Assembly (NCBI GenBank): GCA_029263395.1
Contig: JAJCXO010000036.1
Span: 1,638-65,637 of the forward strand
Length of the DNA stretch: 64,000 nucleotides
DNA from: Acidobacteriota bacterium
GTDB lineage: Bacteria > Acidobacteriota > Thermoanaerobaculia > Multivoradales > J023
Reading direction: 5' to 3'
Part shown: piece after piece, positions 1 to 40,500 of the stretch
How positions within the stretch are numbered: the first letter of the stretch is position 1
Layout of the letters: the number at the start of each line of letters is the position of its first letter
Notes under the pieces: model-generated
The model's input: the letters and a program-made list of their open reading frames with translations, nothing else
Told to the model about the DNA's origin: nothing
The model's database searches: none
Translations under genes and position numbers: made by a program

Positions 1-491
1 GCCCCCCCGCCGTCGTAGGTCAGCACCACACGATCGGCCTCGGTGAGGTCAGTGAGTGCTCCTTGCATCAGCCGCCGATCCTCCGGAAGCTCGCCGGCTA
101 GCTCGACCTTCACCACCGTCGGCTCAGCGCCACTCTGAAGCCGCTGCAACCCCTGCTCCAGCTGATCGTCGGTTGGTAGCTCGTCGCCTTCGCGCAACTG
201 TCGATCCTTACGGCGCCAATGGGACGCCAAGCGTTGGCTGATGATGACGTTGAGCAGCGCCTGAAAACCGCCCTTCTCCGGATCGTCCTTCCAGCCTTTT
301 CGCAGCCGCCAGACCAGCTTCATCATCACGTCCTGGGCGACGTCCTGTGCCTCGTCAGGGTTCTTGAGCTTAGCCTCCGCGATCCTCACCACCTGCGGAT
401 AATAGGTGGCGACGAAGGTCTCCCAGTCGCCGCCCCGGCCGTCCAGCTGACCAAGCAGGGCAGGATCGGTTTTGCGCGTGCAGTGGCCCAT
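1..491 (-). CDS. ECF-type sigma-70 family sigma factor, N-terminal part (gene runs off the left edge)
   Basis: My own minus-strand translation from ATG 491-489 gives MGHCTRKTDPALLGQLDGRGGDWETFVATYYPQVVRIAEAKLKNPDEAQDVAQDVMMKLVWRLRKGW...FQALLNVIISQRLASHWRRKDRQ...LTEADRVVLTY. It shows region-2-like signatures and the beginning of a region-4-like signature. It is missing from the ORF track because no stop codon lies in the window. The ATG sits 3 nt after the TGA (495-497) of the upstream gene. Confidence 0.6.
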   Translation of the reverse strand, partial: MGHCTRKTDPALLGQLDGRGGDWETFVATYYPQVVRIAEAKLKNPDEAQDVAQDVMMKLVWRLRKGWKDDPEKGGFQALLNVIISQRLASHWRRKDRQLREGDELPTDDQLEQGLQRLQSGAEPTVVKVELAGELPEDRRLMQGALTDLTEADRVVLTYDGGG

Positions 492-494: not shown

Positions 495-1865
495 TCACCA
501 CTCGTCGGGCGAATAAGGCTGTGGAGCCTGCTCGAACCGAAACGGGCAGCACTTGGCAACCGTTGGATAGCTGGGTGGCAAGGGAGACGGAGCCTGGACA
601 ACCTGGTTGCCATCGGTCCGCGGGGCGGTGCCGGGCGCAGCTGCTGGAGGAGTCCTGCGGGCCTCCAGAACGTGCTCCTGCCACTTCCGACGCACGGATT
701 CCATCCGCTGCTCAGTGCTCTCGAATGGCACCGTCTGCCATAGCTGCGCCATAAACTTGTAGTCGTTCTGGGCGTAGGGGTCCATTCCGAGCTCTTGCTT
801 AATACGAAGGCTGATGTCTACCTCCTGCTGCGTCAGCCCCTCGACCCCGATGTCGGCATCGTAGCCGTGTGCGTAAAGCAGGAGCTTGAGCCTACCGGCC
901 GCGTCAGCCACGTCAGACACCTCAAGCTCCTGGCGATACCAGCGGACGAGTTCCTCGTCGGTGGTGACGTCGGTGACGATCCGCCACCACGGTACCCGGA
1001 AGTAGCGGCCGAGTAGATGGATGATGGCCAGCTCGCTGGCCATGCGCAGCGCCCGGCTCTTGCTCTGAATGCCGACGACCCGCGATCGGAACCCGAGGCC
1101 GCTGCCCTCGAAGAAGATGCCGAAAGCGTAGGACTTGTCACTGCGGGCGACGTTGACGCGGTAGCTTTCGGCTAGGCGGTCGATCGCCGTCATGCGATAG
1201 TTGTCGTAGATCTGAAGATCGATCGCCAGGGTGGTAAGCTCGATGTCTCGATCGGTGCCAAAGCCGAGGTCCAGCTCCTCGTCACGCTGGGCGGCAGTCA
1301 CCGAGCCGCCGGGACGGTTGGTGATCGTCTCGTTGCCGCTCTTTACTGGGATCAGCGCATCCATCTGCACGCCCCATCCCTTGCGCAACCGCGTCTCCCC
1401 CTCGGTGATACTGCCGCGAACGCTGAGAAGAGGCCGGCGCATCAGAGTCTGGTGGTCGAGCTGCCCCATTTCCATCAACCGTAAATCGGTCAGGACCTGC
1501 GTGCGATCCACAACCTCGATCGGGCGCCCGATCTTCGCCAGAATAGTGCGCAGGACTGGAGCCAAGTCGGTCGGCAAGCCGTCGGTGACGCCACTAGTAT
1601 TCAGGATCGGCGGAACCTCGATCGACACTGGATCGGTAAGCGCCCGCGGGTAGGCCCGCAGCATGGTGCCAAACTGAGCGACCGCGCCACCGAACCGGGT
1701 GAAGTTCTGCGCCGGCGGCGCCATTGATTCGTCCTGCTCGAGAATCACCGCGCCGGGCGTCGGCGTGGTCGCGCACGCCGACAACAGCGGCGCCACGGTG
1801 AGCGCAAAAAGGAGAAGAGCCGTGCACGTCGTAGCATCATTCCGTTTGGGAACGAGACGCTTCAT
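495..1865 (-). CDS. CsgG-like outer-membrane lipoprotein (curli-type secretion channel family) with a Pro-rich C-terminal extension
   Basis: This is ORF 495..2054. I place the start at the internal ATG 1865, giving MKRLVPKRNDATTCTALLLFALTVAPLLSAC, a signal peptide plus an L-S-A-C lipobox. CsgG-like blocks are present: LRTILAKIGRPIEVVDRTQVLTDL, LSVRGSITEGE, LTTLAIDLQIYD and RALRMASELAIIHLLGRYF. Confidence 0.6.
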   Translation of the reverse strand: MKRLVPKRNDATTCTALLLFALTVAPLLSACATTPTPGAVILEQDESMAPPAQNFTRFGGAVAQFGTMLRAYPRALTDPVSIEVPPILNTSGVTDGLPTDLAPVLRTILAKIGRPIEVVDRTQVLTDLRLMEMGQLDHQTLMRRPLLSVRGSITEGETRLRKGWGVQMDALIPVKSGNETITNRPGGSVTAAQRDEELDLGFGTDRDIELTTLAIDLQIYDNYRMTAIDRLAESYRVNVARSDKSYAFGIFFEGSGLGFRSRVVGIQSKSRALRMASELAIIHLLGRYFRVPWWRIVTDVTTDEELVRWYRQELEVSDVADAAGRLKLLLYAHGYDADIGVEGLTQQEVDISLRIKQELGMDPYAQNDYKFMAQLWQTVPFESTEQRMESVRRKWQEHVLEARRTPPAAAPGTAPRTDGNQVVQAPSPLPPSYPTVAKCCPFRFEQAPQPYSPDEW

Positions 1866-1881: not shown

Positions 1882-2412
1882 TCAACGCCCGCCGGTAACG
1901 CCAGGAGAGGACGCGCCGTCGAGCAAGCGACGGGCATTGGCGCCGCCGCTGCCATGAATCCGCAGTGAGGCAAGCTCGACCACTGATTCGACCTCGATCG
2001 GACGACGCCGACGGCGCTCCTCCGGCAGCTTGAGGACGCCAATCTCGAGCTCACGCCCCTGGCGCCGGTCGACGCGTAAAGTTTGCGGTACGTGCGACAC
2101 CAACGCCAGCGAGACCTTGCGCACTCCGTCGGTGTCGGTAAGCGAGGGACTCAGCACTTGCGGGTTGCCGGTTCGCTGCGCGCCCTGTAGCTGAGAATCG
2201 TCGAGGTAGAGATAGAGCTCCCCGCTCGGGCTCACCCGGCCGCCAAAGTATCGGCCGCGATTCTTGATCAGCAGCTGCTCGTAGATGCCGGGGGCACGCG
2301 CCGAAGCAAGCCGAGAGGGTGCACCCAGTATTTGTGCGTCGAGCGACCGCGCCGGGACCAGCAGCCCAAGGACAATGATTGCGGCAAGAATTGAGCAGGT
2401 TGGGAGGTTCAT
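1882..2412 (-). CDS. secreted hypothetical protein (about 176 aa) in the CsgG-like operon
   Basis: This is ORF 1882..2646. The internal ATG at 2412 gives MNLPTCSILAAIIVLGLLVPARSLDAQ, a signal peptide. The gene ends 17 nt before the CsgG-like start. I recognise no family. Confidence 0.45.
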   Translation of the reverse strand: MNLPTCSILAAIIVLGLLVPARSLDAQILGAPSRLASARAPGIYEQLLIKNRGRYFGGRVSPSGELYLYLDDSQLQGAQRTGNPQVLSPSLTDTDGVRKVSLALVSHVPQTLRVDRRQGRELEIGVLKLPEERRRRRPIEVESVVELASLRIHGSGGANARRLLDGASSPGVTGGR

Positions 2413-2512: not shown

Positions 2513-3013
2513 TCATTCGACCCGAACCCCGCCAATTTGCACCGTGTGGTTCCGGCCCCAAACCGCAACTGCGCCGCTGAAACTAGTGCTGGCGGAAATG
2601 CTGCCGACCCTGGCCGAGTTAACTTGGAGACCACCAACTTGGGCATCTACGCCCCATCCGACGACGGCAACCGCGCCGCTCATCCGGGTGCGCTCACGCA
2701 ACGAACCGCCGGCACGGGCATCACTTAGCTTCACCCCTCCGACCTGGACGCCAACGTCGGTTCCAGCCGCCACGGCAACTCCGTTGAGGGCCGTGCGGCT
2801 TGCGACATCGCCGCCAGCCACCGAGTCGTCGAGGTGTACGCCGCCGACCTGCACACCGACATTGACGCCGGTCGCTAGCACTGCCCCGTTGACGGTCGCA
2901 CGGCTGGTGACGTCGCCGTCCACCCGGCTACCGGACAGTACCTGGGCGCCTGAGCTAACCGCTGAAACAGTGAGTATCGCGGCCAACGACATGGCCATCA
3001 GATCAGGTTTCAT
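2513..3013 (-). CDS. secreted tandem-repeat protein A (4 x ~35 aa, beta-solenoid/amyloid-subunit candidate)
   Basis: Signal peptide MKPDLMAMSLAAILTVSAVSSGAQ. Repeats follow, such as DVTSRATVNGAVLATGVNVGVQVGGVHLDDS and GDVASRTALNGVAVAAGTDVGVQVGGVKLSDA. A Shine-Dalgarno AAGGAGG lies 5 nt upstream of ATG 3013. It is a paralog of 3145..3654. Confidence 0.7.
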   Translation of the reverse strand: MKPDLMAMSLAAILTVSAVSSGAQVLSGSRVDGDVTSRATVNGAVLATGVNVGVQVGGVHLDDSVAGGDVASRTALNGVAVAAGTDVGVQVGGVKLSDARAGGSLRERTRMSGAVAVVGWGVDAQVGGLQVNSARVGSISASTSFSGAVAVWGRNHTVQIGGVRVE

Positions 3014-3144
3014 TAATGCCTCCTTGTTGTGATGCTCGGTTCGGCGGGTTGCACCGTGCCAGAGACCTCCTTACCCCAAAGGCAGGAGGTGGCACGACAA
3101 AGCGCCGTGCCACAGCTGACAGGATCGTCAGTCCGGTTTCCCGA

Positions 3145-3654
3145 TCAGTCCATCCAGACTCCACCTACCTGGGCTTCGACGTTGGTCCCGGCAGCTAGTA
3201 CGGCACCATTGACCTCGGTGCGGGAATCGATGTTGCCGGTTACCCGTGAATTCTTGATCCGCACCGAACCGACATGGGCGGTGACGTTGGTACCCGCGGC
3301 CAGAACCGCACCGTTCACGACAGTGCGCTCGGTGATGTCACCTTCCACCTGCGAGCCAACGATCCGTACGCCGCCAACCAGGGCTGCGACATTCTCGCCC
3401 GCGGCGAGCACCGCACCGTTGACCCGTACGTTGGAGTCGATGTCACCATCGACCTGAGAACTGCTGATTCGGATCCCGCCGACCTGAGCGAGCGCGTTGG
3501 TGCCTGCGGCTAGCACCGCACCGTTGACCTCGGTACGGGCGGTCAGGTCGCCCTCGACTCGGCTGCCGCCGCCGGACAGTACTTGCGCCTCGGCTCCGAT
3601 GGCTGCAGTCAGAAGGACTACGGCAAACATGAGAGTTCTAGTGCCTGTGTTCAT
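3145..3654 (-). CDS. secreted tandem-repeat protein B (4 x 35 aa, beta-solenoid/amyloid-subunit candidate)
   Basis: Signal peptide MNTGTRTLMFAVVLLTAAIGAEAQ. Four near-regular 35-aa units follow, of the form RVEGDLTARTEVNGAVLAAGTNALAQVGGIRISSS. A Shine-Dalgarno AAGGAG lies 6 nt upstream of ATG 3654. Confidence 0.7.
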   Translation of the reverse strand: MNTGTRTLMFAVVLLTAAIGAEAQVLSGGGSRVEGDLTARTEVNGAVLAAGTNALAQVGGIRISSSQVDGDIDSNVRVNGAVLAAGENVAALVGGVRIVGSQVEGDITERTVVNGAVLAAGTNVTAHVGSVRIKNSRVTGNIDSRTEVNGAVLAAGTNVEAQVGGVWMD

Positions 3655-3905
3655 TGGATTCTCCTTCCCATTCAGGTTTTATTTTCGGCGTCTCAGACGC
3701 CGTATTCATCGAGGTATACCCGCGGTCCCCAAAAAGCGTTACACCGGGGTCGAGACCAACCTCCTACCGATCGATACGACCGACCATGGACCGATCGCCC
3801 TGCCGACCGATAGTGCGGTGCAAGCCGGGTTGGTCGTCGCCGAATCCGCCGTGACGGTCAGCTCGACGTCGGAGAGACCCAGAAACCTCAGTGGTTGCCA
3901 CACCT

Positions 3906-5549
3906 CTAGCTCCCCGGGCGCGGCGTCCGGTCGTTCGCCCAAGCAGGACGATTCTGGCTTCTTGCCTCCTTCTTCGTAGCACCACCGAATCGATAGACCA
4001 TCGACAGACTGACGATGTCGGAACGTTCCGAGAGATCGAAGGCGAGATCGACCTGCACCTTTTTGCCAACGAAGCCCAGCCCTCCAGTGATATGAAGCTC
4101 ATCCTCGCCACGCGGGAACCGAAAGGCGAATCGATCCTCGATCTCACCGATGGCGTCAGGGTCCCTGCCTTCGAAATCGTAGTAGAGCTGATGATCCGGG
4201 TCGTACCAGAGTCCGAAACGCAAAGCGATCGGATTCTGGCGTACAAACACGTACTCGACCCCCAGATGGAATTCGTCGCCATCGTCAATCTTGAAGTTCT
4301 TGAGAAATCGGGAGATGCACGGAACACTGGACCTCAGCTCCGGAGGACTGGCCAGGGGAGTCGGATAGCGATCGCCATCGATGTTGTAATCTCCGCAGCT
4401 ACCCAATTGGAGATCATTCGCCGTGCCCGGCCTTGGTGCGCCTCGCGTTGCCGTGGTAATGACGTTCGCCGCTGGCGTGAGGCTGGAATACTCGACTCGA
4501 TCGTATTCGAATGACACCGTGAGTTTCTGCGTCGGCTTGACCATCCAGCCGACGCTGACGACATCTGGGACTGCAAACTGAGTCGTACCAGTGAGGTCCC
4601 TAACGACACCTGGGTCAGTGAGATTGGGGTTCGGTTGCCCAGCCGATTGGGCTCGTGCTTCGTTGAGCGGTCCCCAATTGAATCCGTAGTCGAAATCAAA
4701 CTCGGGAGCTTGGCGATAGACCAAGCCGAGCCCCCAGCGATCCGATTTGCCCTTCCAAATCAGGCCAACTGTAGCAGCAACGTCGCTATCGTCCCCTGTC
4801 TGTGTGGATCGCTCGGTTTCGTTCGCAGGAACCAACTCCACGGCAGTGGTGATGACTTCACTTACGCCATCAGAGCGAGCCGAGTTGTTGGTCGCATAAC
4901 GACGAGTCAGCGAATCGTAGTCGAAAGTGTAGTACGACAGCCCGATACCTAACCACAGATTCTCGGTCACGCTATAGGCTGCAGACGCACCGTAGTTCAC
5001 GATGTCTAGATCGAGCCGGCCACTAAGAGCGGACAAGCGGCTGCGGGATTGGGTCGGAGTGACACCCGCAGCCACCGGTTTACGGATAAACGATCCTTGG
5101 CTCTCGAGTTGAACCTCGAAAGCCGCCAGCTCGTGTCGATAAAGGGCAACCCTCCACTTCTCACCGAGCACATGAGCATAGGACAAGAAGGAGAGCCCAG
5201 AGACAGCACTTTCGAACTCCCTCAACTCGAGATCTGGATTGGTATCGATGCCGACATTGGTCGGTGTGAAGTTAGCGCTTCCCCCGAAGGGATACTTGGT
5301 CTTGTAGTTACGGTATCTGCCCTCGGTGGATACCTCGCTCTCGTAGATCCAGATCAGCCCCGCTGGGTTGGCGAACGCTGCGGTGGAATCGTCAGCCAGC
5401 CCCGTAAATGCCCCTCCCAGCGCGAGGCTTCGCGCTCCTGGTGGCGCGAAACTGAACTGGAGCCCAGCGTTAATCTCATCATTCGTCTGAGCGCTAGCGA
5501 TCGTCGACGTGATGAATATCACTGCACAAAATCTGACATATATAGGCAT
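3906..5549 (-). CDS. outer-membrane beta-barrel protein, FadL/OmpP1-like
   Basis: Signal peptide MPIYVRFCAVIFITSTIASAQT. The N-terminal block GARSLALGGAFTGLADDSTAAFANPAGL is typical of FadL-type barrels. The protein is Gly/Tyr/Asp-rich with an alternating-strand pattern. Confidence 0.6.
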   Translation of the reverse strand: MPIYVRFCAVIFITSTIASAQTNDEINAGLQFSFAPPGARSLALGGAFTGLADDSTAAFANPAGLIWIYESEVSTEGRYRNYKTKYPFGGSANFTPTNVGIDTNPDLELREFESAVSGLSFLSYAHVLGEKWRVALYRHELAAFEVQLESQGSFIRKPVAAGVTPTQSRSRLSALSGRLDLDIVNYGASAAYSVTENLWLGIGLSYYTFDYDSLTRRYATNNSARSDGVSEVITTAVELVPANETERSTQTGDDSDVAATVGLIWKGKSDRWGLGLVYRQAPEFDFDYGFNWGPLNEARAQSAGQPNPNLTDPGVVRDLTGTTQFAVPDVVSVGWMVKPTQKLTVSFEYDRVEYSSLTPAANVITTATRGAPRPGTANDLQLGSCGDYNIDGDRYPTPLASPPELRSSVPCISRFLKNFKIDDGDEFHLGVEYVFVRQNPIALRFGLWYDPDHQLYYDFEGRDPDAIGEIEDRFAFRFPRGEDELHITGGLGFVGKKVQVDLAFDLSERSDIVSLSMVYRFGGATKKEARSQNRPAWANDRTPRPGS

Positions 5550-5616: not shown

Positions 5617-8460
5617 TTAAAACTCAGCTGGCACACTCATTTTCAGAGCTTTGAAGCCGACATCGCTCTCTCCAAAGCTGGGATCATCGAGAAAACCCCA
5701 TTGTGGATTGCTCCGCGGTGAACGCCCCATTTCCGCGACATAGCGCCCCAACTCACGTCCGAGAACCAGGCCGTCCAGGTTGGCGTCGGCGCTACCTCCG
5801 AGGCCAGCAACGACGGCAACTCGGAATGCGCTCTCGTCGGGGACCTCTTGTTGCTCATCGCCAGCAGTCAGGAAGAGACGAGCAGGACGGGAAAGCAGAT
5901 CATCTACCGAGGTGCCTTGAACCTTCTCGATCAAGCGAGCCTTGGCAGCGTTGAACACGGTTCCGGAAAAACAGCTGTCGAAAATGAAGACTACGTCTCT
6001 CGCACGGGCTTCGACCGCGTACTTCTTGAAGTCCTCCATGCTGACGAGAAACCTGAGGTGTTCGCTGCTTTGTCCGGGCGTCGGTGAATCGACAGGAACG
6101 ATATAGCCGAGACTTCGTCCCCAATTGGCTTCAGACCAGCCGTGGCCTGCGTAGTAGACGATCAAGCGGCTGTCGGGCTCAGTACCGCGCCCGGCGATAA
6201 AATCCTCTAGCCTGCTAGCTAGCTCCTTCTTCTTCGGGTTCCAGACAACCTCCACCTCAAAATCCTGGCGCTCGAGCACAGCCTGGACGCGCTTAATGTC
6301 ATCCTTCACTCCGGGTAGCTGCGCCCAGCCGTGCACGTAGTCAACGGCGCCGATCAGCAGGGCGAAACTGTTGGCGTAGATCTTTAGCCGGTCGTCGCGG
6401 GATAGCAGATTCTCGAAGGCGTTGAGAGTAGAGGGGCGGGCCCGGCCCCACCCACGGGCCAAGAGAAGGCTCTCTCTCGCCGCTGCCTTGTCACCACACT
6501 CAAGATAGACGCGGACCCGATGGAGGAACGGGGTGTAGGGCATGCCGAGGGCAGTCTCCAAAGCCTCGACGTTGGCGAGCGCTGCCGTCTCGCCCAGCGC
6601 CGCGTGTACTCGATCGATCTCGTCGATGACGCTCCGATCGCATCCTTCTCCAATCTCAGAGACTGTGGCCGTGTAAGTGGAAATCGCCCGCCTCTGCATC
6701 GCTTGCAGCGCATGCTCGTGGTCTGCGGTTTCGACGGCCTCCACCAGCGAGGCGATCGCTCGCTCCTGAAGATCATCTGTGGGAGTCGATCGCGCCTGCG
6801 CGATGTAGCGACGGCTCTCGTCGAGCTCGCCACACGCTAGGTAGCCGTGCGCTAGGGCAAGATACGGCCGAGCCTGCGAGAGTCCTTCGCTGGCGAGCGC
6901 ACCAAAGAACCCGTCGCCGACCATGGCCTCGAGCCTCAACAGCGGTGCTCGCTGGCAAGAGTCAGTTGTCAGTAGCTTCTCGATCTCCTCAAGGCGAGCC
7001 AGGAGCAGCCTGCGATGGCGTCGCTCCTCGGCCTCGAGCTTCTGCTGGACGGGAACCTCCTGCCAAGGGTCCTGCTCGGCGTCCAACTTTACCTCTTCAA
7101 GTCGCCGAGCCACTTGAGCGACCTGCTCCGGTAGATCGAGCCCCGCATGGCGGACCCTTGAAAGGGCTGCCTCCGCATCGTTGACCTGCTGGCAGGACAG
7201 TTCCGCGTTCGCAATCAGCAATCGAGGTGTGGGCAAGGGAAGCGGAGTACTGGCCTCGGGAGCTGACTCAAGCGAGGCCAAATCTTCCACCAGCTGTGGG
7301 TCACACGCTCCAGTCGCGACTCTTTCGCGGCCGAGCTCATAACGCTTGCTCCATTCCGCCCTGGCGACCGCCTTGCGGACCAATTCCTCGAGCGCCGGGA
7401 TCTCGCTCGCAACCGCCGCCTCACTGCGGGCCTCTTCGAGGTGGAGCCGGGCCTCTTCCAGCTCACCACAAGCCACGCTTACCTGCGTCAACCAGAAGTG
7501 GGGAGCCCTGCCAGAGGTCGCCAAGTCGATCGATAGGCGCTTCGCGCCGACCATAATCCGCTTGATTCTGGCGCCGGCGCTTGCAGGGCAGTCGGCCTCG
7601 GCTGCGATCTCGCCAGCGATTTCGTCTAGCTGGCCAAGAAGGTTATCGACAGACGCTCTTCGCGCCGCCTCAACTCGGCGTTCTTCTTCTCGCCGGGCGA
7701 GGTCTCGAATCGATTCGTGGGACGCCGCCAGCCGCTCCCATGCCGTTCGAACCATGACCTCAGCTTGGCCAGTATCGGTGGCCGCAACCCGATTCTTCTT
7801 TAACAGCTCGGCGGCGGCGGCGAGCCCCTCTTGGATCTCCGCCAGCTTGTCCCTATAGGAAGACGCCGACTCACCTGTAGCCAACTCACCTGTGATGCTG
7901 CTGACAGACGCTCGCTGGCGCTGCATCTCCCTACGAGCCTGCGCGACTTCAACAAGCAACCGTTCGGCCCGCTGAGGCAGCGCAAGATTCAGCTCGGATT
8001 TGAGCTCCTCAAGGGCCCTCCGCAAATTCCCGTTCTTTTTATGGTCGATCGCGCCCTGATCTTCGGACTCTTTCCATGCCTCCAGCGCAGCGTCATATCT
8101 TCCCAAATTATAAAGAGCCAAGCCTTGCTGGAAGTAAGGCAGGTAGGGTTCGAACCTCATACCGTAGGGTCGAATCATCTCGCCTTCCCTCGGCTGTTCT
8201 CTAGACGCAGCGGCAAAGAAAGCAAGTGCCTCTCGCCACTTAGAGAAGGCGGCGGAACGCAGGCCTTCCTTGTAGAGATCGACGTAATCCGCTTTGCCAA
8301 CCTGAGGGAAACAGACAAACAGGATCCAAAGCCAAACGGATCGTCGGTGGCCCCCCCCTACTACTCGGCATCGAGGACTGGCTGAGCCGAAATTGCCAGC
8401 GTGAGAATTTTGCATCGTGTTTGCAGGAGTTGCCTTGTTCAGGCATTTCTGGGTCGTCAA
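5617..8460 (-). CDS. exported TPR/helical-repeat protein with a C-terminal caspase-fold (peptidase C14) domain
   Basis: An N-terminal hydrophobic segment (VWLWILFVCFPQVGKA) is followed by TPR-like sequence (LALYNLGRYDAALEAWKES). The C-terminal ~270 aa carry FALLIGAVDY, the His motif LIVYYAGHGW and the Cys motif VVFIFDSCFSGTVF. The start may instead be the second Met, near 8415. Confidence 0.75.
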   Translation of the reverse strand: MTTQKCLNKATPANTMQNSHAGNFGSASPRCRVVGGGHRRSVWLWILFVCFPQVGKADYVDLYKEGLRSAAFSKWREALAFFAAASREQPREGEMIRPYGMRFEPYLPYFQQGLALYNLGRYDAALEAWKESEDQGAIDHKKNGNLRRALEELKSELNLALPQRAERLLVEVAQARREMQRQRASVSSITGELATGESASSYRDKLAEIQEGLAAAAELLKKNRVAATDTGQAEVMVRTAWERLAASHESIRDLARREEERRVEAARRASVDNLLGQLDEIAGEIAAEADCPASAGARIKRIMVGAKRLSIDLATSGRAPHFWLTQVSVACGELEEARLHLEEARSEAAVASEIPALEELVRKAVARAEWSKRYELGRERVATGACDPQLVEDLASLESAPEASTPLPLPTPRLLIANAELSCQQVNDAEAALSRVRHAGLDLPEQVAQVARRLEEVKLDAEQDPWQEVPVQQKLEAEERRHRRLLLARLEEIEKLLTTDSCQRAPLLRLEAMVGDGFFGALASEGLSQARPYLALAHGYLACGELDESRRYIAQARSTPTDDLQERAIASLVEAVETADHEHALQAMQRRAISTYTATVSEIGEGCDRSVIDEIDRVHAALGETAALANVEALETALGMPYTPFLHRVRVYLECGDKAAARESLLLARGWGRARPSTLNAFENLLSRDDRLKIYANSFALLIGAVDYVHGWAQLPGVKDDIKRVQAVLERQDFEVEVVWNPKKKELASRLEDFIAGRGTEPDSRLIVYYAGHGWSEANWGRSLGYIVPVDSPTPGQSSEHLRFLVSMEDFKKYAVEARARDVVFIFDSCFSGTVFNAAKARLIEKVQGTSVDDLLSRPARLFLTAGDEQQEVPDESAFRVAVVAGLGGSADANLDGLVLGRELGRYVAEMGRSPRSNPQWGFLDDPSFGESDVGFKALKMSVPAEF

Positions 8461-8776: not shown

Positions 8777-10381
8777 CTAAGAATCCAAGCTCAAGCCCAA
8801 AGCACTCATCCGCAATTTCAAGCCCCGCCGCGATACCCCGAGGATTTCGACCATCGCGTCGAGGGCCCCGCTCGCGCTCCGAATCGCGTCGACGATCTCG
8901 TCGCGGCTCAGGTCCGCGGCCTTGCGCACCTGCCGACTCTCGTCGATCCGCCGGTAGAGAGAGGAACGGGAGACGCCGAGAGAGGCGGCCGCGAGCGTGA
9001 TGTTCTGGCCGTGCTCGGAAAGCGCGGTGAGGAGCTCTTCCTCACCGATCTCAGTCACTGCGCGATAGCTCGTTTGCTCGGGCTTGGTAACCGCATCATC
9101 AGAGGAACCGCTGGGATCCCTCGATAAACTCAGTAGCCCCTCGATCGCGGGCGTCAGCTGCAACTCTTCCTGCTCCAGACTAGCGACCAGCAATCTGCGG
9201 GCGACGGCACGGAGTTGGCGCACGTTCCCGGGCCACGGGTAGCCAACCAGTCGGGCGACGATCTCAGCCGGCACGGCCGGCGCCTCGTACCTCGCTACTC
9301 CCCGTTGGGACTTGTTTGCCGAATCGAGCGCTTCTGAGAGGAAGTGGAAGAAGAGACGACCGATGTCGTCGCGCCGTTCACGGAGCGGCGGCAGCTTGAT
9401 CTCATACTCGGAGATCCGATGGAAGAGGGGTGCTCGGAACTCGTCGCTCTCGACGGCTCCTTCGAGATCGAGATCGGTCGCGGTGATCAAGCGGACGTCG
9501 ACGCTCACCTGCTCGGCAGCGCCGACCGGTTGGATCTGCCCGTTGTCGATCGCGCGCAGCAACTGAACCTGGACATCAGGCGCCGTCTCCCCAATCTCAT
9601 CAAGGAAGAGCGTGCCACCATCAGCTCTCTGGAAGTAGCCTCGACGTTGCTTGTCTGCACTCGTGAAAGCGCCTCGGGTCGCCCCGAACAGCTCCGACGC
9701 GGCAAGGTTGGAAGGGACAGCGGCGGCATTGACGCACACATAAGGCTGTCGACTTCTCGGCCCAGCCTGGTGCAGGGCGCGGGCTACCAACTCCTTGCCG
9801 GTCCCGGTCTCGCCACGCAGGAGGACCGTGAAGTCGAGCTCTGCCAGGCGCTCGATCTCCTGGCGCAAGCGGAGCATCGGGGAACTCTCGCCGATGAACC
9901 CGAAATCCCCGGGACGGCTGGTGAGGGGCAACAGCGAGTGCAGCAAAAGCGCGCTACTTTGCCCGAGCACGAGGACGACCCCACCCTCGAGATCGACCAA
10001 TGAAAACTCGCGGGAGCGCGTCAGGGAACGGCCGTCGACCTCGACGGCCGAGGCTGTGGCACTGAGGGAAGCGCGCACTCCACCGTCAGCTGTGGCGCTG
10101 AACTCGACCATCGGGCGGCGGCTGACGTAGGGATCGGCCAGGGGCCGCGGCGTGCCACCCGCCGGTTGCGCGAAATAGGGCTCTCCGCGCGACAGCGACT
10201 CACGCCCCCCAGCCACCAGCCCGGTGAGGGACGCGACCTCGCCGACGCGACGCGGATCCGGGTGACAGAGGACCGTCAGGCTGGGGACGCCGATACCGCC
10301 GATCCGGCTCCGGACGTTTGGCGCGGCACGCGTCGTGGCCTCTAGGTCGTCGCGCCAGGTTTGATCATCTTCAGGCATCAC
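8777..10381 (-). CDS. sigma-54-dependent transcriptional activator (bEBP) with an N-terminal FHA-like domain and C-terminal Fis-type HTH
   Basis: AAA+ motifs are present: LLRGETGTGKELVARALH, a GAFTSA loop (variant of GAFTGA), GGTLFLDEIG and RLITATDLDL. The N-terminus is FHA-like (ADPYVSRRPMVEF...VEVDGRSL). The C-terminus is HTH-like (ITLAAASLGVSRSSLYRRI and LGVSRRGLKLRMSALGL). Confidence 0.85.
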   Translation of the reverse strand: MMPEDDQTWRDDLEATTRAAPNVRSRIGGIGVPSLTVLCHPDPRRVGEVASLTGLVAGGRESLSRGEPYFAQPAGGTPRPLADPYVSRRPMVEFSATADGGVRASLSATASAVEVDGRSLTRSREFSLVDLEGGVVLVLGQSSALLLHSLLPLTSRPGDFGFIGESSPMLRLRQEIERLAELDFTVLLRGETGTGKELVARALHQAGPRSRQPYVCVNAAAVPSNLAASELFGATRGAFTSADKQRRGYFQRADGGTLFLDEIGETAPDVQVQLLRAIDNGQIQPVGAAEQVSVDVRLITATDLDLEGAVESDEFRAPLFHRISEYEIKLPPLRERRDDIGRLFFHFLSEALDSANKSQRGVARYEAPAVPAEIVARLVGYPWPGNVRQLRAVARRLLVASLEQEELQLTPAIEGLLSLSRDPSGSSDDAVTKPEQTSYRAVTEIGEEELLTALSEHGQNITLAAASLGVSRSSLYRRIDESRQVRKAADLSRDEIVDAIRSASGALDAMVEILGVSRRGLKLRMSALGLSLDS

Positions 10382-11878: not shown

Positions 11879-14464
11879 CTAGCATCGTCCGCCTGGGGAC
11901 CTGGCCGCAACTGCAAGGTAGACTTCGCCGAGTTCCGGCTTGTCCCAGGACTCATAGAGCTCGACCAAACGGCACGCTGCGGCCCGAGTGTAGGGAGCGT
12001 TCTCGCCGCGAGCCTCGCGGATGACCTCGAAGCTGCGCTCGAGGGGCGCCTCGGCTTCGGCGTACCGTCCCATCCGCGCCAGGCTGGCGGCATGAACGCT
12101 CTCGGCGTCGGCCATGCGCCAGGACTCCGCTCTCTGGCTGGCGCGCAGCGTCGCGATGGCTTCGCTGGCCAGGGTTCGGGCGGCTTCTGGATCATCCTTC
12201 GCGATCAGGGTCACCGCCAGGTTGATCTTGGTCAGGGCTACCTCATAGTGACCGTCCTCCAACTGCTCACGGTAGATCGACAAGGCCTCCAAGTAGGCGC
12301 TCTCCGCCGCCTCGAGAGCTCCTCGGCCGTGGAGGATCTTGCCGAGGTTGTTGAGCACTACGGCGACGTTGCGATGCTCTGAGCCGTAGACCGCGCGGCG
12401 GATCCGCAGTGCCTGCCGCGCCTCGTCCTCAGCGAGCCCGAGTCGACCCTGAGCATAGAGCACGGTTGCCAACTGGTTGCGGCTATTGGCGACATTCTTG
12501 TGCATCGGCCCAACGGAAGCGAGGCGAATCTCGAGGCTCCGCCGGTAGACCTCCTCGGCCGCACCGTAGTCACCCTGCTCCAATAGCACGGTGGCCAGGT
12601 TGTTGCGTGCTAGAACGACGTCCGGATGCTCCTCACCGAGACTCCGAGTACGCATGTCCACAACCCGGCTGAACAGCGCCTGCGCCTCGGCGTACAACCC
12701 CCGATCGTAGGCGGTGATCGCCAGCGTATTGATACTCTCCGCGATCCCGCCAGCGTCCAGCCCGGAGCTCTTGGCGCGTATCCTGAGCGACTCGCGCAGG
12801 CGCTCCTCGGCCCTCTCGGTCTCGCCGGTGTGCTGGTCGAGAAAAGCAAGGTTGTGCAGGCTCTCGGCGACTAGGACATGGTCCTCACCGAGGTTCTCAA
12901 GCCGGACCTCGAGAGCGCGCTCGAGCAACGCTGACGCGCGCTCATAGCGGCCGAGGGCGGTGTATCCCCTCCCCAAGGAGTCCATCAGCAAGGCCTGATC
13001 GAGGGGGTGGTCAGCGAAGAGCGGATCGCTGACGATGCGGGCGGCTCGGTTCAGGGCCTCCTCAAGCTCGACCCGCTGGTCTGGAGTCGCCGGCTGCAGT
13101 GCCTTGAGCAGGCCAAGCAGCGATTCCGAAACTCGGCGCGACTGCTTGATCTCCTGTGCCTGATCCCACACCATGACGCCACCCTGAAAGACTAGGACGG
13201 CGGCAGCGGCTACCGGCAACCAATGACGACGGACGAACTTGCCAGCGCGATGCGCCAGCGTCGGCTTGCGGGCTTCGACTGGCATCCCGGTCAGATGCCG
13301 GCGAATGTCCGCCGCAAGCTGGTCGACCGACGCGAACCGGTCCTCGGGCCTGCGGGCCATGGCCTTCAGCACGATCGCGTCCAGGTCGCCGGCCAGCCGT
13401 CGACGGAGCCGGCGAGGGCTGCCGTCCCGGACACGGCTAATCTCCTCCGGAGTGAGGCGGGCGGCAACGCTCTCGGCGTTGCTTTCGACGCGCAGGACGG
13501 CGACGCTAGGCGCTTCAGGCTGCTGCCGCTCGATGACCGCTCGGATCGCTTCGAGCTCGCTACTCTCGAGCCGGTAGGGCAATCGACCGGTGAGCAGCTG
13601 GTACAGGAGGACGCCGAGCGAGTAGATGTCGGACGCGGTTGTCAGGGGCTGCCCGGCGAGCTGCTCGGGGCTGGAATAGAAGGGTGTCAGGCCGCTGGCG
13701 AGCGGCCGCGAGTCTTCCCCAACGGTGTCGAGGGACTCGCCGACTGCGCCGGACGACCGCTCGACGTCCAGCGGCTTGGCGATGCCGAAATCGAGCAGCT
13801 TGGGGATGCCTTCCCCGGTGACCAGGATATTGCCCGGCTTCAGATCCCGATGGACGACTCGCAGCTTTTGGTGGGCCAAGTGAACCGCCGAGCAAACCTG
13901 GAGGAAGAGCTCGAGGCGCTGGCGGGTGGTCAGCCGCTGCTCATCGCAGTACTCCCCGATGGGCTTGCCTTCGACGTACTCCATGACGAAGTACGGCCGG
14001 CCGTCAAGGGTGGTGCCGCCGTCATAGAGCTGGGCAACGTTGGGGTGCCGGATCCCGGCCAGAATCTGCTGCTCCTCCGCGAAGCGACGAACCGTGTCCG
14101 GGTGGAGAATCTCCGGCCGGATGAGCTTCAACGCGACCCGTCTCTTGAAGGGCTCTTCCTGATGCGCCAGGTACACGGTGCCCATCCCGCCCTCGCCGAG
14201 CTCCCTAGCGAGCCGGTAAGCCCCAATCCTGGGAACCAGCACACCGTCGTCGATGTTCTCGGAACCTAGAGGTACGAGTGGTTTCTCTAGAAAGTGGTCC
14301 AGTCGATCGTCGTACTCAAGGAAGGCCTGGACCTGATCGCAGAGATCCGGGTCGTCGCGGCGCGTCTCGTCCAGCAGCCCAGGCTTCTCAGCCGGCGGTA
14401 GGTCATCAAACCTGTCGAGCACGTCTTGGACCTGGCGCCAGCGCTCAGCGGTCAACGTCCCCAT
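11879..14464 (-). CDS. Ser/Thr protein kinase with a TM segment and C-terminal TPR array
   Basis: Kinase motifs are LGEGGMGTVYLA, VALKLI, HRDLKPGNILV, DFGIAK and SPEQ. A TM segment (WLPVAAAAVLVF) follows. The C-terminus has many TPR-type units such as NLAFLDQHTGETERAE. Confidence 0.9.
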   Translation of the reverse strand: MGTLTAERWRQVQDVLDRFDDLPPAEKPGLLDETRRDDPDLCDQVQAFLEYDDRLDHFLEKPLVPLGSENIDDGVLVPRIGAYRLARELGEGGMGTVYLAHQEEPFKRRVALKLIRPEILHPDTVRRFAEEQQILAGIRHPNVAQLYDGGTTLDGRPYFVMEYVEGKPIGEYCDEQRLTTRQRLELFLQVCSAVHLAHQKLRVVHRDLKPGNILVTGEGIPKLLDFGIAKPLDVERSSGAVGESLDTVGEDSRPLASGLTPFYSSPEQLAGQPLTTASDIYSLGVLLYQLLTGRLPYRLESSELEAIRAVIERQQPEAPSVAVLRVESNAESVAARLTPEEISRVRDGSPRRLRRRLAGDLDAIVLKAMARRPEDRFASVDQLAADIRRHLTGMPVEARKPTLAHRAGKFVRRHWLPVAAAAVLVFQGGVMVWDQAQEIKQSRRVSESLLGLLKALQPATPDQRVELEEALNRAARIVSDPLFADHPLDQALLMDSLGRGYTALGRYERASALLERALEVRLENLGEDHVLVAESLHNLAFLDQHTGETERAEERLRESLRIRAKSSGLDAGGIAESINTLAITAYDRGLYAEAQALFSRVVDMRTRSLGEEHPDVVLARNNLATVLLEQGDYGAAEEVYRRSLEIRLASVGPMHKNVANSRNQLATVLYAQGRLGLAEDEARQALRIRRAVYGSEHRNVAVVLNNLGKILHGRGALEAAESAYLEALSIYREQLEDGHYEVALTKINLAVTLIAKDDPEAARTLASEAIATLRASQRAESWRMADAESVHAASLARMGRYAEAEAPLERSFEVIREARGENAPYTRAAACRLVELYESWDKPELGEVYLAVAARSPGGRC

Positions 14465-14509: not shown

Positions 14510-15307
14510 TCACTCGTCAGATGGTTCGTCAGAATACTCGTCGAGCTCGCGGGCCAAAAAGCGCTTGGCGTTACGCCACTTCCGACTGACGGTCTTGACC
14601 GAAACACCGAGCGCCTCGGCGGTTTCCTCTCGCGTAAGCCCGATCAGGTGGCGCAGACGAACGACATCGGCTTGAACCGGATCGAGCTTGGCGAGGTCGG
14701 CGAGCTTCTCCGCGATGTCGACTGCGACGCCTATGACCTGTATCGCTGCCTCGCGACTCGAAGCCTCCGGCAGCGGAGCCACAGGTCCGACGAACAGGGA
14801 CGAGGCGTCGCTGCCAACAGCGAGATCTAGAGCCTCGACGATCGGAACCGTGGTCGCCTGCCCACCACGTTTCTCTGTATTGAGTGCGCGCTTGTAGTTG
14901 CGCAGGGTCCGCTCGATGAGGAAAGCGGCAAAATTGTAGAACTGACCACGGCTCTCCCATTTGACGGACCTCTGCTTGAGCAGGACCTCGTAGAGCTCAC
15001 CGATCAGCGCGGTGGGCTGGATACTCTTGACTGGAAGTCGACCATAGTGCTTACGCGCCAGCCGCCGCAGATCCTCGAAGGCGAGTGGAAAGATGGCGTT
15101 GAGAGCTTCAATATCACCCTGACTCCAGGCGACCAACAGGTGAGTAATGTCACCCGAGGAATCTACCAGCGCAGCGTCCTTCGTGGCCTTCTCCGGCGGC
15201 TCCGGCTCGCCCGAGCTGGCCTTGGCTTCCGAACTCTCTTGACTCGGCAGGGCGACCAGACTCTCGGAGTCGCGCCGGCCTTCGCTATCTGACGAACCCT
15301 CTGTCAT
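14510..15307 (-). CDS. ECF sigma factor (TIGR02999-like, kinase-associated type)
   Basis: ITHLLVAWSQGDIEALNAIFPLAFEDLRRLARKHYG and the C-terminal LGVSVKTVSRKWRNAKRFLAREL are typical of this ECF subgroup. The gene lies immediately upstream of the kinase gene on the same strand. Confidence 0.75.
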   Translation of the reverse strand: MTEGSSDSEGRRDSESLVALPSQESSEAKASSGEPEPPEKATKDAALVDSSGDITHLLVAWSQGDIEALNAIFPLAFEDLRRLARKHYGRLPVKSIQPTALIGELYEVLLKQRSVKWESRGQFYNFAAFLIERTLRNYKRALNTEKRGGQATTVPIVEALDLAVGSDASSLFVGPVAPLPEASSREAAIQVIGVAVDIAEKLADLAKLDPVQADVVRLRHLIGLTREETAEALGVSVKTVSRKWRNAKRFLARELDEYSDEPSDE

Positions 15308-15776: not shown

Positions 15777-18700
15777 ATGCAAGTGATTCATCGACAGTAC
15801 AGCGTTCGAAAATCCGAATTTCAGGCAAGATGCTTCGCGGCACGCAAGATCCTTGCGCTCTCGGCCATCGTGCTCAGCTCGGCCTGGGCCACGCCAAGCC
15901 ATGGCGGGTGCACTTCGGAGAACATCGGCCATGCCGGTAGCCTCCTTGACGGCGCTGGTGGCGCGTTGCTCTTCACCGCTCAGGATGTTTTCGTCTCCGG
16001 CAACTTCGCCTACGTCGCGTCGCGCTACGCCAGTGCGCTCGAGATCATCGACATCTCCAACCCGGCGACGCCTGTCCACGCTGGGGTGATCCAGCATGGC
16101 GATGGCGGTGCCCAACTCCGCGATCCGGCAGGCGTTTTCGTCTCCGACGGATACGCCTACGTCACCTCGTCCGATTATTCCACGTTCGAAGTGGTCGACG
16201 TCTCCGACCCCACCGCCCCGAGCCACGTCGCAGCCCTGACGGACGGCCAAGGGGGAGCCTCCCTGGGCGGCGCCGAATCGGTCTATGTCAGCGATGGTTT
16301 CGCCTACGTCACCGCGTTCCAGGATGGCGTCCTCGAGATCATCGATGTCTCGAACCCGCTAGCGCCGGCACATGTCGCGTCTTCTCCGGTCGACACCCCG
16401 TGGTCGGTGGTCGTCGACGGGGACTATGCGTATGTCGTTTCGCGGCACGAAAACAAAATGGTTGTTATCGACGTGTCGAATCCTCATGTACCGGTCCTCG
16501 CCGGGTCGATCGCCGACGACGAAGGCGGGGCCGTCTTTGATAGCCCCTCGGCCGTTCGAGTGCGCGGGCAGTATGCCTACGTCGCCGGTGAAAACGATTT
16601 CGAGATCGTCGACATCAGCGACCCCACCAACCCCACCCACCTGGGTTGGACTTCGACCGGCGGCAACAGAAGGGAGGCCGGACTCTTCATCGCCGGCGGT
16701 TATGCCTTCATCGCGGCCTCCGAAACGGATTCCCTAGAGATTGTCAATATCTTTGACCCCGCAGCCCCACAGAAGGTGGCCAGCCTGACCCACGGCGCAG
16801 CCGGAGCCATGCTGGAAGGAGCCTTCGCAGTCTTTGTCGACGGCGACTATGCGTTCGTCGCAGCCAGAAATTCCGACGCACTGGAGGTGGTGGATGTCTT
16901 CGATTTCGCCGTCGACTGCCCCCCCGAACTCGAGATCGATGAGCCGGACGGTTTCGGCGACCTCGCGGACCAGAGCTTTGACATCGAGTGGACGGACAGC
17001 GACGACGAAAATGCGTCCATAACGTTTTTTTACGATACCGACAGAAGCGGTGAAAACGGGATTCGGATCCCCGGCGTCTTCGACGAAGACGACACGGCGG
17101 ATCAATTCACCTGGGACACATCCGAAGTCCCTGATGGCTCCTATTACGTTTACGGCCGGATCGACGATGGTGCACAAGTTGTCGTCGATTACAGCTTCGG
17201 ACCGGTCACGGTCAGCCACCCTGACACCCCGCCGACGATCACGATTCTCGAGCCGGACGGTGTCGACGACCTCGCCGACCTGAATTACACGATCACCTGG
17301 AACGACGACGATCCTGAAGACAACGCATCAATCACACTGTTTTACGACGACGACAACACCGGAGCGAACGGCACACAGATCACCACCGGACTCATCGATG
17401 AAAATGATCCCGCGGACACATTCGTGTGGGACACGGCCATGGTACCGGCGGGGACCTATTACATTTACGGCAGGATCGACGATGGTGCACAAGTCGTCGT
17501 CGATTACAGCTCGGGGCCGGTCACCATCAGTCACGCCAACTCGTCGCCGACGATCACGCTCCTCGAGCCGGACGGCATCGGCGACGTCGCCGATGCCGTC
17601 TACACCATCACTTGGGAAGACGAGGATCCAGACGACAACGCAGCCGTCCGCCTATTCTACGATGACGACGCGTCGGGCGAGAACGGCACCCTGATCACGG
17701 TCTCCGGGCCGATCGACGAGGATGACGGGTCCGACCAGTTCATCTGGAACACGGCCGGAATCCCAGCCGGTCAGTACTACCTCTATGCCGAAATCGACGA
17801 CGGTACCAACGCGCCGGTCACGAACTACAGCTCCGCCTCCGTCACCATCGAGCACTTGGCGCCGTCCGATTGGCAACCCGCCAGACTGCTGAGGACGCCG
17901 CGCAAGAATCACACCTCAACCTTGCTCCTGTCGGGCAAGGTCCTGGTCACCGGTGGTGAGTTCGGTGGATTTCTGAGTGGCACAGAGATCTATGACCCGC
18001 AGGACGGCAGCTGGACGTTCTCCGGGGCGATGGGCTACGCTCGGGAGGAGCACACCGCGACGATCCTGCCCACGGGCGAGGTGCTGATCGTCGGAGGCTG
18101 GGGCGGCGCCGGCAGCTGGCCGGAGACCGGACGCAGCGCCGAGCTCTTCGACCCTGACACCGGAATCTGGAAATCTGCCGGTTTCCTAACCAACCCCAGG
18201 CAAGGACACACCGCCACTCTACTGCACTCGGGCAAAATTCTAGTAGCCGGCGGCCTCGGCGACGATCCTTCAACCGTAGAACTCTATGACCCGGAAACCG
18301 GCGACTGGGAAACCACCGGTAGCCTGAGTTCGGCCCGTTACCAGCACACTGCCACCCTTCTGCCCGATGGTCAGGTCCTGGTCGCAGGTGGGCGGGGCGG
18401 CGGCCTTCACTTTGCGAGCGCCGAGATCTACGATCCGCAGACCCGTACCTGGACCGGCACCGGGTCTCTGGGCAGTCCGCGAGCCCGCCACACCGCAACC
18501 CTGCTCCCCACGGGCCAGGTGCTGGCCGCCGGAGGCAACCTCGGTAACGCCCGGTTGGCCGGCGCGGAGCTCTTCGATCCCGTGACCGGGTCCTGGACTC
18601 CAACCGGCTCGCTCAATTACTCCCGGATCGCTCACACCGCAACGCAACTTCCCTCGGGGGACGTCCTGGTCACCGGCGGCAGGTATGAACCGTCTTCATT

Positions 18701-33983: not shown

Positions 33984-34010
33984 GGGTTCTCGCGAGGTTT
34001 GAGGGGTGGA

Positions 34011-35162: not shown

Positions 35163-35267
35163 CTTTATATTTTAACATTCGTTGCCTGATCGAGCCTAGA
35201 CTGAATCGGACCCGATACAGTTGGCGAAGACACACTAAACAACCGGCAGACTTTGTGTCGGCCCGCG

Positions 35268-39692: not shown

Positions 39693-39699
39693 GGCTGAC

Positions 39700-40242: not shown

Positions 40243-40336
40243 TTCGGTTCATCCAACGGTTATCGACAACCCTGCGAGAGTCGTCATCTGATGAGGCTAG
40301 TCTAGTTGAAAGCAGAAACCGGTTCGCGCCTCCCGG

Positions 40337-40500
40337 GGAGCCCCCTGTGGAGCGAGCACGCAGCGAGTATGTATGAGCAAGAGAACAGACCATCGCTCTC
40401 CAAACTATTGTAACCAATAGGGTTGACTGACATTAAGGCGCCGAGGCGAGTTACGCAGCTGGGCGCGCAGTCCACAGGGTGCGACCGGACAACCCACGTC
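40337..40500 (-). repeat. copy 1 of the ~165-bp conserved intergenic element (inverted relative to copy 2)
   Basis: The reverse complement aligns with 49068-49232 at roughly 90 percent identity. A 90-nt core has only 2 mismatches. Confidence 0.9.

Follow-up and report, generated by a model that had tools for sequence, protein, structure and literature searches.

A candidate curli-like fibre operon in an Acidobacteriota bacterium, with repeat proteins unrelated by sequence to curlin and Fap and a lipoprotein of probable CsgG fold

To our knowledge, curli and Fap are the only well-characterised fibre-amyloid systems of Gram-negative bacteria, and the Hfa anchor provides a third case, linked to CsgG. 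The CsgG channel is a nonameric barrel of 36 strands with two membrane hairpins per protomer. Curli subunits range from 4 to 22 repeats (Evidence in PMC3521004), and CsgB is degenerate in its last repeat, R5 (PMC10192328). In the Hfa system of Caulobacter, the CsgG-like lipoprotein HfaB serves HfaA and HfaD, which form amyloid-like multimers resistant to SDS and heat and whose surface localisation depends on the lipoprotein (PMC6707917). This article concerns a four-gene core operon, B-A-C-D, found in a stretch of 64,000 nucleotides from an Acidobacteriota bacterium (GTDB lineage Bacteria; Acidobacteriota; Thermoanaerobaculia; Multivoradales; J023; GenBank assembly GCA_029263395.1, contig JAJCXO010000036.1, positions 1,638 to 65,637 of the forward strand), hereafter the window, to whose full length all coordinates refer unless another locus is named. 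The evidence leaves an even balance on whether A and B are the subunits of a curli-like extracellular fibre unrelated by sequence to curlin and Fap. Literature searches on CsgG-like systems, combined with DUF4384 or new amyloid subunits, yielded no account of this operon. Its genes are the following.

3145–3654, minus strand: gene B, a 169-residue precursor, proposed major fibre subunit
2513–3013, minus strand: gene A, a 166-residue precursor that shares the register of B, proposed as a minor subunit serving as nucleator, anchor or cap
1882–2412, minus strand: gene C, a 176-residue secreted protein with a signal peptide, proposed to act as an accessory factor in the periplasm or outside the cell
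495–1865, minus strand: gene D, a 456-residue lipoprotein beginning 16 bp after C, proposed outer-membrane secretion or assembly platform

The resemblance to curli concerns both the subunits and their arrangement. Two tandem paralogous, Sec-exported proteins of about 14 kDa are built from imperfect strand-turn repeats with fixed Gly, Asn and Gln positions, one copy being regular and the other degenerate toward its C-terminal repeats; the numbers of repeats and of paralogues vary by lineage, and the operon holds an outer-membrane lipoprotein whose model matches CsgG. In contrast to the curlin unit, a strand-turn-strand of 19–23 residues with two N-$-Psi-$-Psi-$-Q motifs in the pattern S-x5-Q-x-G-x-G-N-x-A-x3-Q, however, the A/B unit has 35 residues and 3–4 strands. 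D is about 180 residues longer than CsgG, the unrelated protein C takes the place of CsgE, CsgF and CsgC, and regulation apparently involves a fusion of an extracytoplasmic function (ECF) sigma factor with an FHA domain, whereas curli has CsgD. With Fap, the locus shares the pairing of a regular with a minor repeat protein, a predicted solenoid layer of several strands instead of a simple beta-arch and, at some A/B loci, a nearby gene for an exported cysteine protease. FapC layers, on the other hand, comprise 62–72 residues in five strands with long loops, and the outer-membrane partner is a trimeric barrel of the FapF type rather than a lipoprotein. Hfa offers a precedent for a CsgG-like lipoprotein working with amyloid-like surface proteins other than curli; HfaA is described as curlin-like, which A and B are not, and holdfast polysaccharide genes do not adjoin the operon.

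A different parallel is provided by the bactofilins (PF04519), small and nearly pure beta-helices without caps that form end-to-end polymers. They are cytoplasmic and lack a signal peptide, whereas A and B have one. Neither A nor B gave a bactofilin match, and a distant relative, P0012, gave one below threshold (E 0.016). Bactofilin windings comprise about 18 residues; a half-repeat of 17–18 residues, with two windings per unit, was considered for A and B and rejected because no such sub-period exists.

Repeats, conservation and predicted fold of the subunit pair

Both precursors begin with a signal peptide with an AxA-type cleavage site (between AEA and QVLSG in B, between SGA and QVLSG in A), and both genes carry a Shine-Dalgarno sequence, AAGGAG(G), 6–8 nt 5′ of the ATG. 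Mature B consists of an 8-residue lead, QVLSGGGS, followed by four regular 35-residue repeats up to the stop codon, and mature A of a 6-residue lead followed by four 35-residue units, again up to the stop codon. Apart from the leads, the mature proteins are repeats only, with no capping domain. Self-comparison gave a sole identity peak at a shift of 35 residues (0.62 for B and 0.35 for A) and no sub-period at shifts 3–34, and the top identity reached in 5000 residue shuffles over periods 10–59 was 0.25 for B and 0.27 for A. Val, Gly and Ala make up 47% of B, which has no Cys, Pro, Phe or Tyr. An earlier sequence-only reading of this DNA had proposed two secreted paralogues of four 35-residue repeats, free of Cys and preceded by strong Shine-Dalgarno sites. 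The B units that it quoted equal the translation, the period exceeds that of the shuffles, the ribosome-binding sites are present on both genes and the lack of Cys is borne out for B. Among the motifs that it called invariant, V-N-G-A-V and A-G-x-N hold within B of the window; Q-V-G-G-V does not, as its Gln occurs in two of the four repeats (Leu and His occupy the others) and its second Gly is Ser in repeat 3.

The repeat unit has the features of a folded strand-turn element. Its first half displays strict alternation of hydrophobic and polar residues; four turn positions, at even spacing, always hold Gly and two positions always hold Asn, and the centre of the unit is doubly hydrophobic (A-V-L-A-A...A-L-A-x-V). 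Across the 12 B-type repeats of three genomes, the invariant positions are G4, N13, G14, A15, L17, A19, G20, V27 and G28. Degeneration in A lies in repeats 3–4, where Asn13 of the V-N-G turn is replaced by Ser and a bulky Trp stands at or beside the A-G-x-N turn, both in all three genomes. The expectation that a regular copy is paired with a diverged one was thus upheld, the two being kept as orthologous pairs in these genomes.

The orthologous pairs are located in L001, a Logan contig, and in L004/L005, two loci of the metagenome-assembled genome (MAG) 'bacterium isolate Bpl_12' (JAAELT01). B is 75% identical to its L004 orthologue and 65% to that of L001, with a ratio of non-synonymous to synonymous substitution rates (dN/dS) of 0.19–0.27. 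For A and B together, dN/dS against the two other genomes is 0.10–0.35, which denotes purifying selection and therefore indicates that both are real genes; all four genes, A, B, C and D, are under purifying selection at similar rates. Individual repeats of A are 52–80% identical to the orthologous repeat and 26–54% identical to the other repeats of A. Because repeats are closer to their orthologues than to their siblings, the four-rung layout must be old and each rung individually constrained. The split between A and B is ancient and position-specific.

Another shared feature concerns the first residues predicted for mature A, B and the unrelated C, which all start with Gln-[Val/Ile]-Leu (QVLSG, QVLSG and QILGA, respectively). 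The corresponding codons lie at 3583–3585 for B, 2942–2944 for A and about 2332–2334 for C, all on the minus strand. The same start is present in L001 and L005 and missing from other nearby secreted proteins, and it could be a shared recognition or pyroglutamate motif. Between B and A, directly 3′ of the B stop codon, there is a weak terminator-like hairpin (3104–3116, minus strand) that could lower the expression of A relative to B. The fold z-score of this intergenic region was -1.8 and terminator-like sites were no commoner than in shuffled sequence, so that nothing is built upon it here.

Modelling of mature B with AlphaFold2 (AF2), from an input alignment of 4 sequences only, gave an all-beta structure without a capping element, at a predicted local distance difference test score (pLDDT) of 91 and a predicted template modelling score (pTM) of 0.80. 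Secondary-structure assignment with DSSP placed 3–4 strands in each 35-residue unit, in a pattern identical in every unit and with the conserved Gly turns in between. When this model was compared with the PDB by Foldseek, the matches were exclusively beta-solenoids and beta-helices. The best of them was the FapC amyloid fibril 9u4u_A (E 8.6e-4, with a probability and a template modelling (TM) score of 0.12 each), which was the sole match below 1e-3; the CsgA fibril ranked fifth, and SufBD, pentapeptide-repeat, pectate-lyase and ice-binding helices were also matched. Solenoids that are uncapped and open-ended polymerise via stacking (PMC10192328).

The sequences of A and B themselves lead to no described family. 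Neither the Curlin_rpt model (PF07012) nor a Fap model matched A, B or any of the 10 distant relatives scanned at E ≤ 1, in agreement with the prediction that the unit lies outside both consensus patterns, and hhalign comparisons with CsgA and CsgB of E. coli gave P 0.48 and 0.45. The suggested likeness to Fap repeats was not seen in sequence searches, as the subunit profile found neither FapC nor CsgA chains in the PDB at E ≤ 10. More broadly, scans of A, B, C and D against Pfam, NCBIfam, PHROGs and PADLOC returned nothing above noise, and no PDB sequence was matched by the family profiles of the subunits, of C or of D.

Relatives of the subunits are rare. Two turned up when 5.8 billion proteins were searched with a word index; in 1.84 billion cluster representatives, scanned exhaustively with HMMER, there were 38 proteins at E ≤ 1e-3, 7 of them at E ≤ 1e-10. 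Among 185,579 GTDB species genomes, a single MAG (Bpl_12, JAAELT01) is a carrier. No Pfam or NCBIfam family matched the relatives. The absence of the family from both collections, together with its presence in one of the 185,579 GTDB species representatives, makes it invisible to current annotation. The distant relatives are small proteins with a signal peptide and units of 33–36 residues that follow the pattern S-x-V-x-G-x-[IV]...N-x-A-[IV]-G-x-x-[ST]-x-A-x-[IVM]-G-[GS]-[IV]. The number of subunit paralogues per locus goes from 1 to 3 and that of repeats per protein from 3 to about 20. The upper end is represented by a 775-residue relative (L175, 3638–5965) with about twenty near-perfect 34-residue repeats (SKIKGTVINTSAGATVTNVGIGKNVKANQGAANIEK), which adjoins a 202-residue subunit, a D-like lipoprotein and an ECF sigma factor. 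The system is thinly scattered over uncultured lineages from soil, marine and host-associated samples. The bacterium of the window is likewise uncultured, and its pyruvate phosphate dikinase has its nearest counterpart, at 65% identity, in a MAG of the Thermoanaerobaculia (Acidobacteriota).

Lipoprotein D, gene C and their linkage to the subunits

The product of gene D is composed of a lipobox (LLSA followed by the lipidated Cys), a CsgG-like N-terminal domain (about residues 31–298), a helical extension, a Pro-rich linker and a conserved tail, YPTVAKCCPFRFE. The lipobox is conserved in all the members of the family that were aligned. The Pro-rich linker and the tail (C-terminus of D, 495–640, minus strand) recur in six full-length close homologues, where the tail, which includes two adjacent Cys residues, is near-invariant as YPT[VI][AS][KE]CCPFRF and matches no known motif. 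Compared with CsgG, D has about 30 extra residues in the region of the first membrane hairpin and a C-terminal extension of about 170 residues. In other lineages, the C-terminus of D homologues is fused to a peptidoglycan-binding OmpA domain (L092, 5804–7795) or to DUF4384 (L180, 7466–9163). These fusions tie the separate DUF4384 and OmpA genes found in the clade of the window to the same system.

Structural comparison points to CsgG. The top 19 Foldseek matches of the D model are all CsgG (4uv2, 6l7a, 4uv3, 6lqh, 7brm and 6si7), with E values down to 1e-6, probabilities of 0.99–1.00 (1.00 for the top 17) and target TM-scores of 0.45–0.49 at best, obtained with a query model of pLDDT 46. They are followed by the lipoproteins HpaA, FlgT, LpoB, GNA1162 and PelC at E 1e-3 or worse. 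By hhalign, the N-terminal domain of D follows CsgG collinearly along about 205 columns that begin at the lipidated Cys and end at the C-terminal Trp, and the alignment pairs LSVRGSITEGE of D with IMVEGSIIGYE of CsgG and LGFGTDRDIELTTLAIDLQ with YFGIGADTQYQLDQIAVNLR. Conservation within D is highest in the block [AS][FY]G[IV]F[FW][ER]GSG.G, an amphipathic hairpin that aligns with the second membrane hairpin of CsgG and is itself a putative membrane hairpin; hairpin-like segments can also be read off the sequence at about residues 157–205 and 243–266. Taken together, these results make D probably a lipoprotein of the CsgG fold. At the level of sequence matches it is not filed as a member of the CsgG family.

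Gene C encodes a new small secreted protein that belongs to no known family. Comparison of the C family with CsgE, CsgF and CsgC by hhalign gave P 0.2, 0.21 and 0.1, that is, no similarity. C is found 3′ of the subunit genes in four clades, with orthologues in L005, L001, L007 and L092, and a distant homologue is present in L010 (hhalign probability 90%, E 1.4e-6).

The association between subunits and D recurs in most of the loci. In nine of the 11 with enough flanking DNA, a D gene is located two genes or fewer from a subunit gene (the window, L001, the Bpl_12 MAG with L004/L005, L007, L092/L093, L010, L175-177, L178 and L180). The order subunit(s)-C-D is preserved in the window, L001, L005, L007, L092/L093, L010 and L180; among these, L007 and L092/L093 form a soil clade with a single subunit and L010 has two or three subunit paralogues. 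In L175-177 and L178, a D homologue lies 3′ of the subunit genes, and BLASTP against D of the window gave E 9e-19 and 4e-14, respectively. Linkage that recurs to this extent argues strongly for a joint function of D and the repeat proteins.

Weighing the proposed fibre and its alternatives

Several results weigh against a fibre exported through a CsgG-type pore. Regarding the subunits, the TM-scores of the B model against all solenoids are only 0.1–0.2, and AF2 has been found to over-predict confident and unrealistic solenoids for repeat sequences (PMC11795689). The earlier prediction of a repeat-stacked beta-solenoid is supported as to class by the high pLDDT and the purely solenoid matches; because of the low TM-scores, the model corresponds to no known cross-section. 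An artefact is less likely for B because its repeats are imperfect and hydrophobic alternation and Gly turns are present. As for D, the AF2 model has a pLDDT of 46, rising to 50–70 in its best parts (residues 61–160 and 206–295), and the hhalign alignment with CsgG is marginal (P 0.03), scoring 21.3 against 14.2 ± 2.3 for column shuffles; the score lies at about 3 standard deviations and one of 60 shuffles exceeded it. Three runs gave P 0.003–0.03, and the inclusion of three more distant D homologues brought no gain. A genome scan meant to broaden the CsgG profile brought back Enterobacteriaceae proteins only, at 89% identity or more, and added no diversity to it. Pfam PF03783 did not match D at E ≤ 1 or at E ≤ 10, seven members of the D family matched neither PF03783 nor an NCBIfam CsgG model, and three family profiles found no CsgG in the PDB. 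Where CsgG has QFKPYPASNF, the hhalign alignment shows a deletion of 9 residues in D, which thus lacks the constriction loop with Tyr51, Asn55 and Phe56. This constriction, in which stacked rings of the three residues provide a phi-clamp and a hydrogen-bond clamp, is reported to be necessary for CsgG-type translocation (PMC4594475). The same fold is also adopted by the non-channel lipoproteins LpoB, PelC, HpaA and PqiC-like proteins, lower in the Foldseek list of D. Regarding the locus, CsgE (PF10627) and CsgF (PF10614) were not found among the neighbouring genes by Pfam or NCBIfam, and in L002 (3024–5494) and L008 (8001–11816), the two remaining loci of the 11, the subunit gene is followed by long proteins of TPR_12/NPHP3 type and not by C-D. 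The subunit relatives at these two loci are P0002, whose N-terminus looks eroded, and P0004. Here the repeat protein may be put to another use, or the copies may have decayed.

The alternative that best withstands these data, itself unlikely, is that A and B are beta-solenoid proteins of the envelope that do not polymerise, acting as spacers, adhesins or ligand- or ice-binding modules, and that D tethers or organises them without forming a pore, within an envelope-sensing unit of DUF4384, OmpA, FHA-sigma and Ser/Thr-kinase proteins. Such a unit would account for the fusions of D to OmpA (L092) and DUF4384 (L180) and for the DUF4384, OmpA-DUF4384, sigma-FHA and kinase genes that follow D in three genomes. 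Many of the Foldseek matches of B are indeed monomeric beta-helices (ice-binding, pectate lyase and pentapeptide-repeat proteins), but monomeric solenoids are usually capped and A and B have no caps; moreover, 3 to about 20 repeats and tandem paralogues are typical of fibre subunits. With respect to D, the missing constriction motif and the presence of same-fold non-channel lipoproteins among its matches agree with a tether, whereas the difference between E 1e-6 for CsgG and 1e-3 or worse for those lipoproteins, and the alignment of the best conserved hairpin of D with the second membrane hairpin of CsgG, speak for a channel.

It is improbable that the solenoid is an AF2 artefact and that A and B are secreted, Gly/Val/Ala-rich and largely disordered proteins of a matrix or coat, or substrates of the caspase-like proteases. 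The tendency of AF2 to build confident but unrealistic solenoids (PMC11795689) was described for perfect repeats, whereas those of A and B are imperfect (35–62% identity). The 4 sequences behind the B model and its poor superposition on PDB structures (TM 0.1–0.2) favour an artefact; however, the alternation and the invariant Gly and Asn residues fit a folded strand-turn unit and not disorder, and the repeats are individually conserved across species, with dN/dS of 0.1–0.35. A role as protease substrates would be in line with the exported caspase-domain proteins encoded upstream of B in the window and in L004, a gene that falls outside the conserved core.

That A and B are ordinary divergent members of curlin or Fap, in a plain curli or fap operon, is very improbable, since the tandem paralogues with a CsgG-like gene, the presence of FapC and CsgA among the top Foldseek matches of B and the loose similarity of N-x-hydrophobic-x-Q-x-G-G to the curlin kernel N-$-Psi-$-Psi-$-Q are opposed by every sequence test (Pfam, hhalign at P 0.45–0.48 and the PDB profile), by a 35-residue unit without sub-period against 19–23 residues in curlin and about 62–72 in FapC, and by the finding of no CsgE or CsgF and no C39 domain (the FapD-type protease) among the scanned neighbours, where FapA, FapE and FapF were not sought by name.

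For a fibre built from A and B, we infer secretion through D, polymerisation, an amyloid character, distinct roles of A, B and C and a dedicated regulation. According to the proposed mechanism, Sec would export B, A and C, and cleavage after AxA would leave Gln as residue 1. D would be lipidated and sorted to the outer membrane, where its CsgG-like fold would form or organise the exit site, and C may be a system-specific helper with a role analogous to that of CsgE/CsgF and no homology to them. Outside the cell, the uncapped four-rung solenoid of B would stack head to tail into a fibre whose register might be fixed by the Gly turns and by a ladder of Asn residues (N13 and N22). A, with its Trp-bearing degenerate repeats 3–4, would nucleate, anchor or terminate the fibre.

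A broader proposal, advanced tentatively and rated somewhat below even, is that diderm bacteria have in this operon a third class of secreted fibre made of functional amyloid, and that this class evolved independently. It would be characterised by rungs of about 35 residues and 3–4 strands, a secretion lipoprotein derived from the CsgG fold without the phi-clamp and with added C-terminal modules (a helical domain or a fusion to OmpA or DUF4384), a new accessory protein, C, and control by an FHA-ECF sigma factor and a Ser/Thr kinase. If true, the solution consisting of an unfolded repeat protein plus a lipoprotein pore would be broader and more modular than believed, and nature would offer in this system a way to see whether peptide export truly requires particular features of CsgG, among them the constriction and the CsgE cap. 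Further gains would be a new, compact solenoid of four rungs as a scaffold for engineered living materials and a divergent pore of CsgG type that might be of interest for nanopore sensing.

Regulation and neighbouring genes

Two features of the window bear on the regulation of the operon.

3715–3742, minus strand: promoter-like element GTAACGCTTT-N15-GTA upstream of B, resembling a -35/-10 pair of the ECF type
1–491, minus strand: 5′ part of a gene for an ECF-like sigma-70/FHA fusion, directly downstream of D and running off the edge of the window, candidate operon regulator

The promoter-like element occurs once in the window. Together with a GC-rich leader hairpin (GGCGYC...GRCGCC), it forms a block conserved upstream of B in three genomes (3680–3742, minus strand, in the window; about 5950–6043 in L004; about 6350–6450 in L001) and is a candidate ECF-type promoter with a structured leader. 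No sigma-70 consensus promoter was found upstream of B. A sigma-54 promoter, considered on account of a nearby sigma-54 activator, was discarded as its matches were at chance level. Orthologues of the sigma/FHA gene follow D in L005 (2693–3715) and L001 (9662–10696) and contain Sigma70_r2, Sigma70_r4 and a C-terminal FHA domain. Downstream of them, both loci carry genes for DUF4384, OmpA-DUF4384 and Ser/Thr-kinase proteins, an arrangement that suggests a sigma factor under phospho-threonine control. In the proposed mechanism, this ECF-type sigma/FHA factor would transcribe the operon from the GTAACG...GTA element upstream of B.

Two genes upstream of B have a weak link with the operon.

3906–5549, minus strand: FadL/PorV-like outer-membrane beta-barrel of 547 residues, directly upstream of B, perhaps an outer-membrane component associated with the operon
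5617–8460, minus strand: exported protein of 947 residues with TPR and a caspase domain (Peptidase_C14), upstream of the beta-barrel gene, perhaps a protease associated with the operon

The beta-barrel matched Pfam Toluene_X (E 1e-12) and, below cutoff, the N-terminal motif of NCBIfam PorV_fam (E 1e-6). An orthologue with 65% identity is present in L005 (8083–9651), about 5 kb from D, and the outer-membrane protein encoded 3′ of D in L175 (8310–9614) has weak FadL/UPF0164 matches and no significant similarity to the protein of the window. The gene is absent from L007, L092 and L010. The caspase-domain protein matched Pfam Peptidase_C14 at E 4e-15. A caspase-domain protein with a signal peptide is encoded directly upstream of B in L004 (4076–5392, minus strand) and a Peptidase_C14 domain is found in L180 (1–1023); the gene is absent from L001, L007, L092 and L010. 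Both genes were rejected as core components because they are missing at several related loci. A link of the caspase-domain proteins to fibre processing is possible and unsupported. A defence-system reading was also rejected, PADLOC having given just generic caspase and sigma-54-activator (RtcR/PspF-type AAA+/HTH) matches.

Elsewhere in the window, a giant protein of 3344 residues (15777–25811, plus strand) combines LVIVD, many Kelch repeats, DUF11, DUF7507 and GEVED, and is probably located at the cell surface. The stretch 32379–49026 resembles a secondary-metabolite cluster, with non-ribosomal peptide synthetases of domain order C-A-T (35253–39692) and C-A-T-TE (44806–49026) accompanied by genes for an acyl-CoA ligase, an acyl-CoA dehydrogenase, a sulfotransferase and a family-2 glycosyltransferase. 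The minus strand encodes two Ser/Thr kinases that carry fused TPR_12 arrays, as well as a sigma factor of the Sigma70_ECF type (11879–14464, 14510–15307 and 25852–29232), and a sigma-54 activator is located at 8777–10381. The presence of kinases, a Sigma70_ECF factor and a sigma-54 activator together indicates a regulator-rich genome in the style of Acidobacteriota and Planctomycetota.

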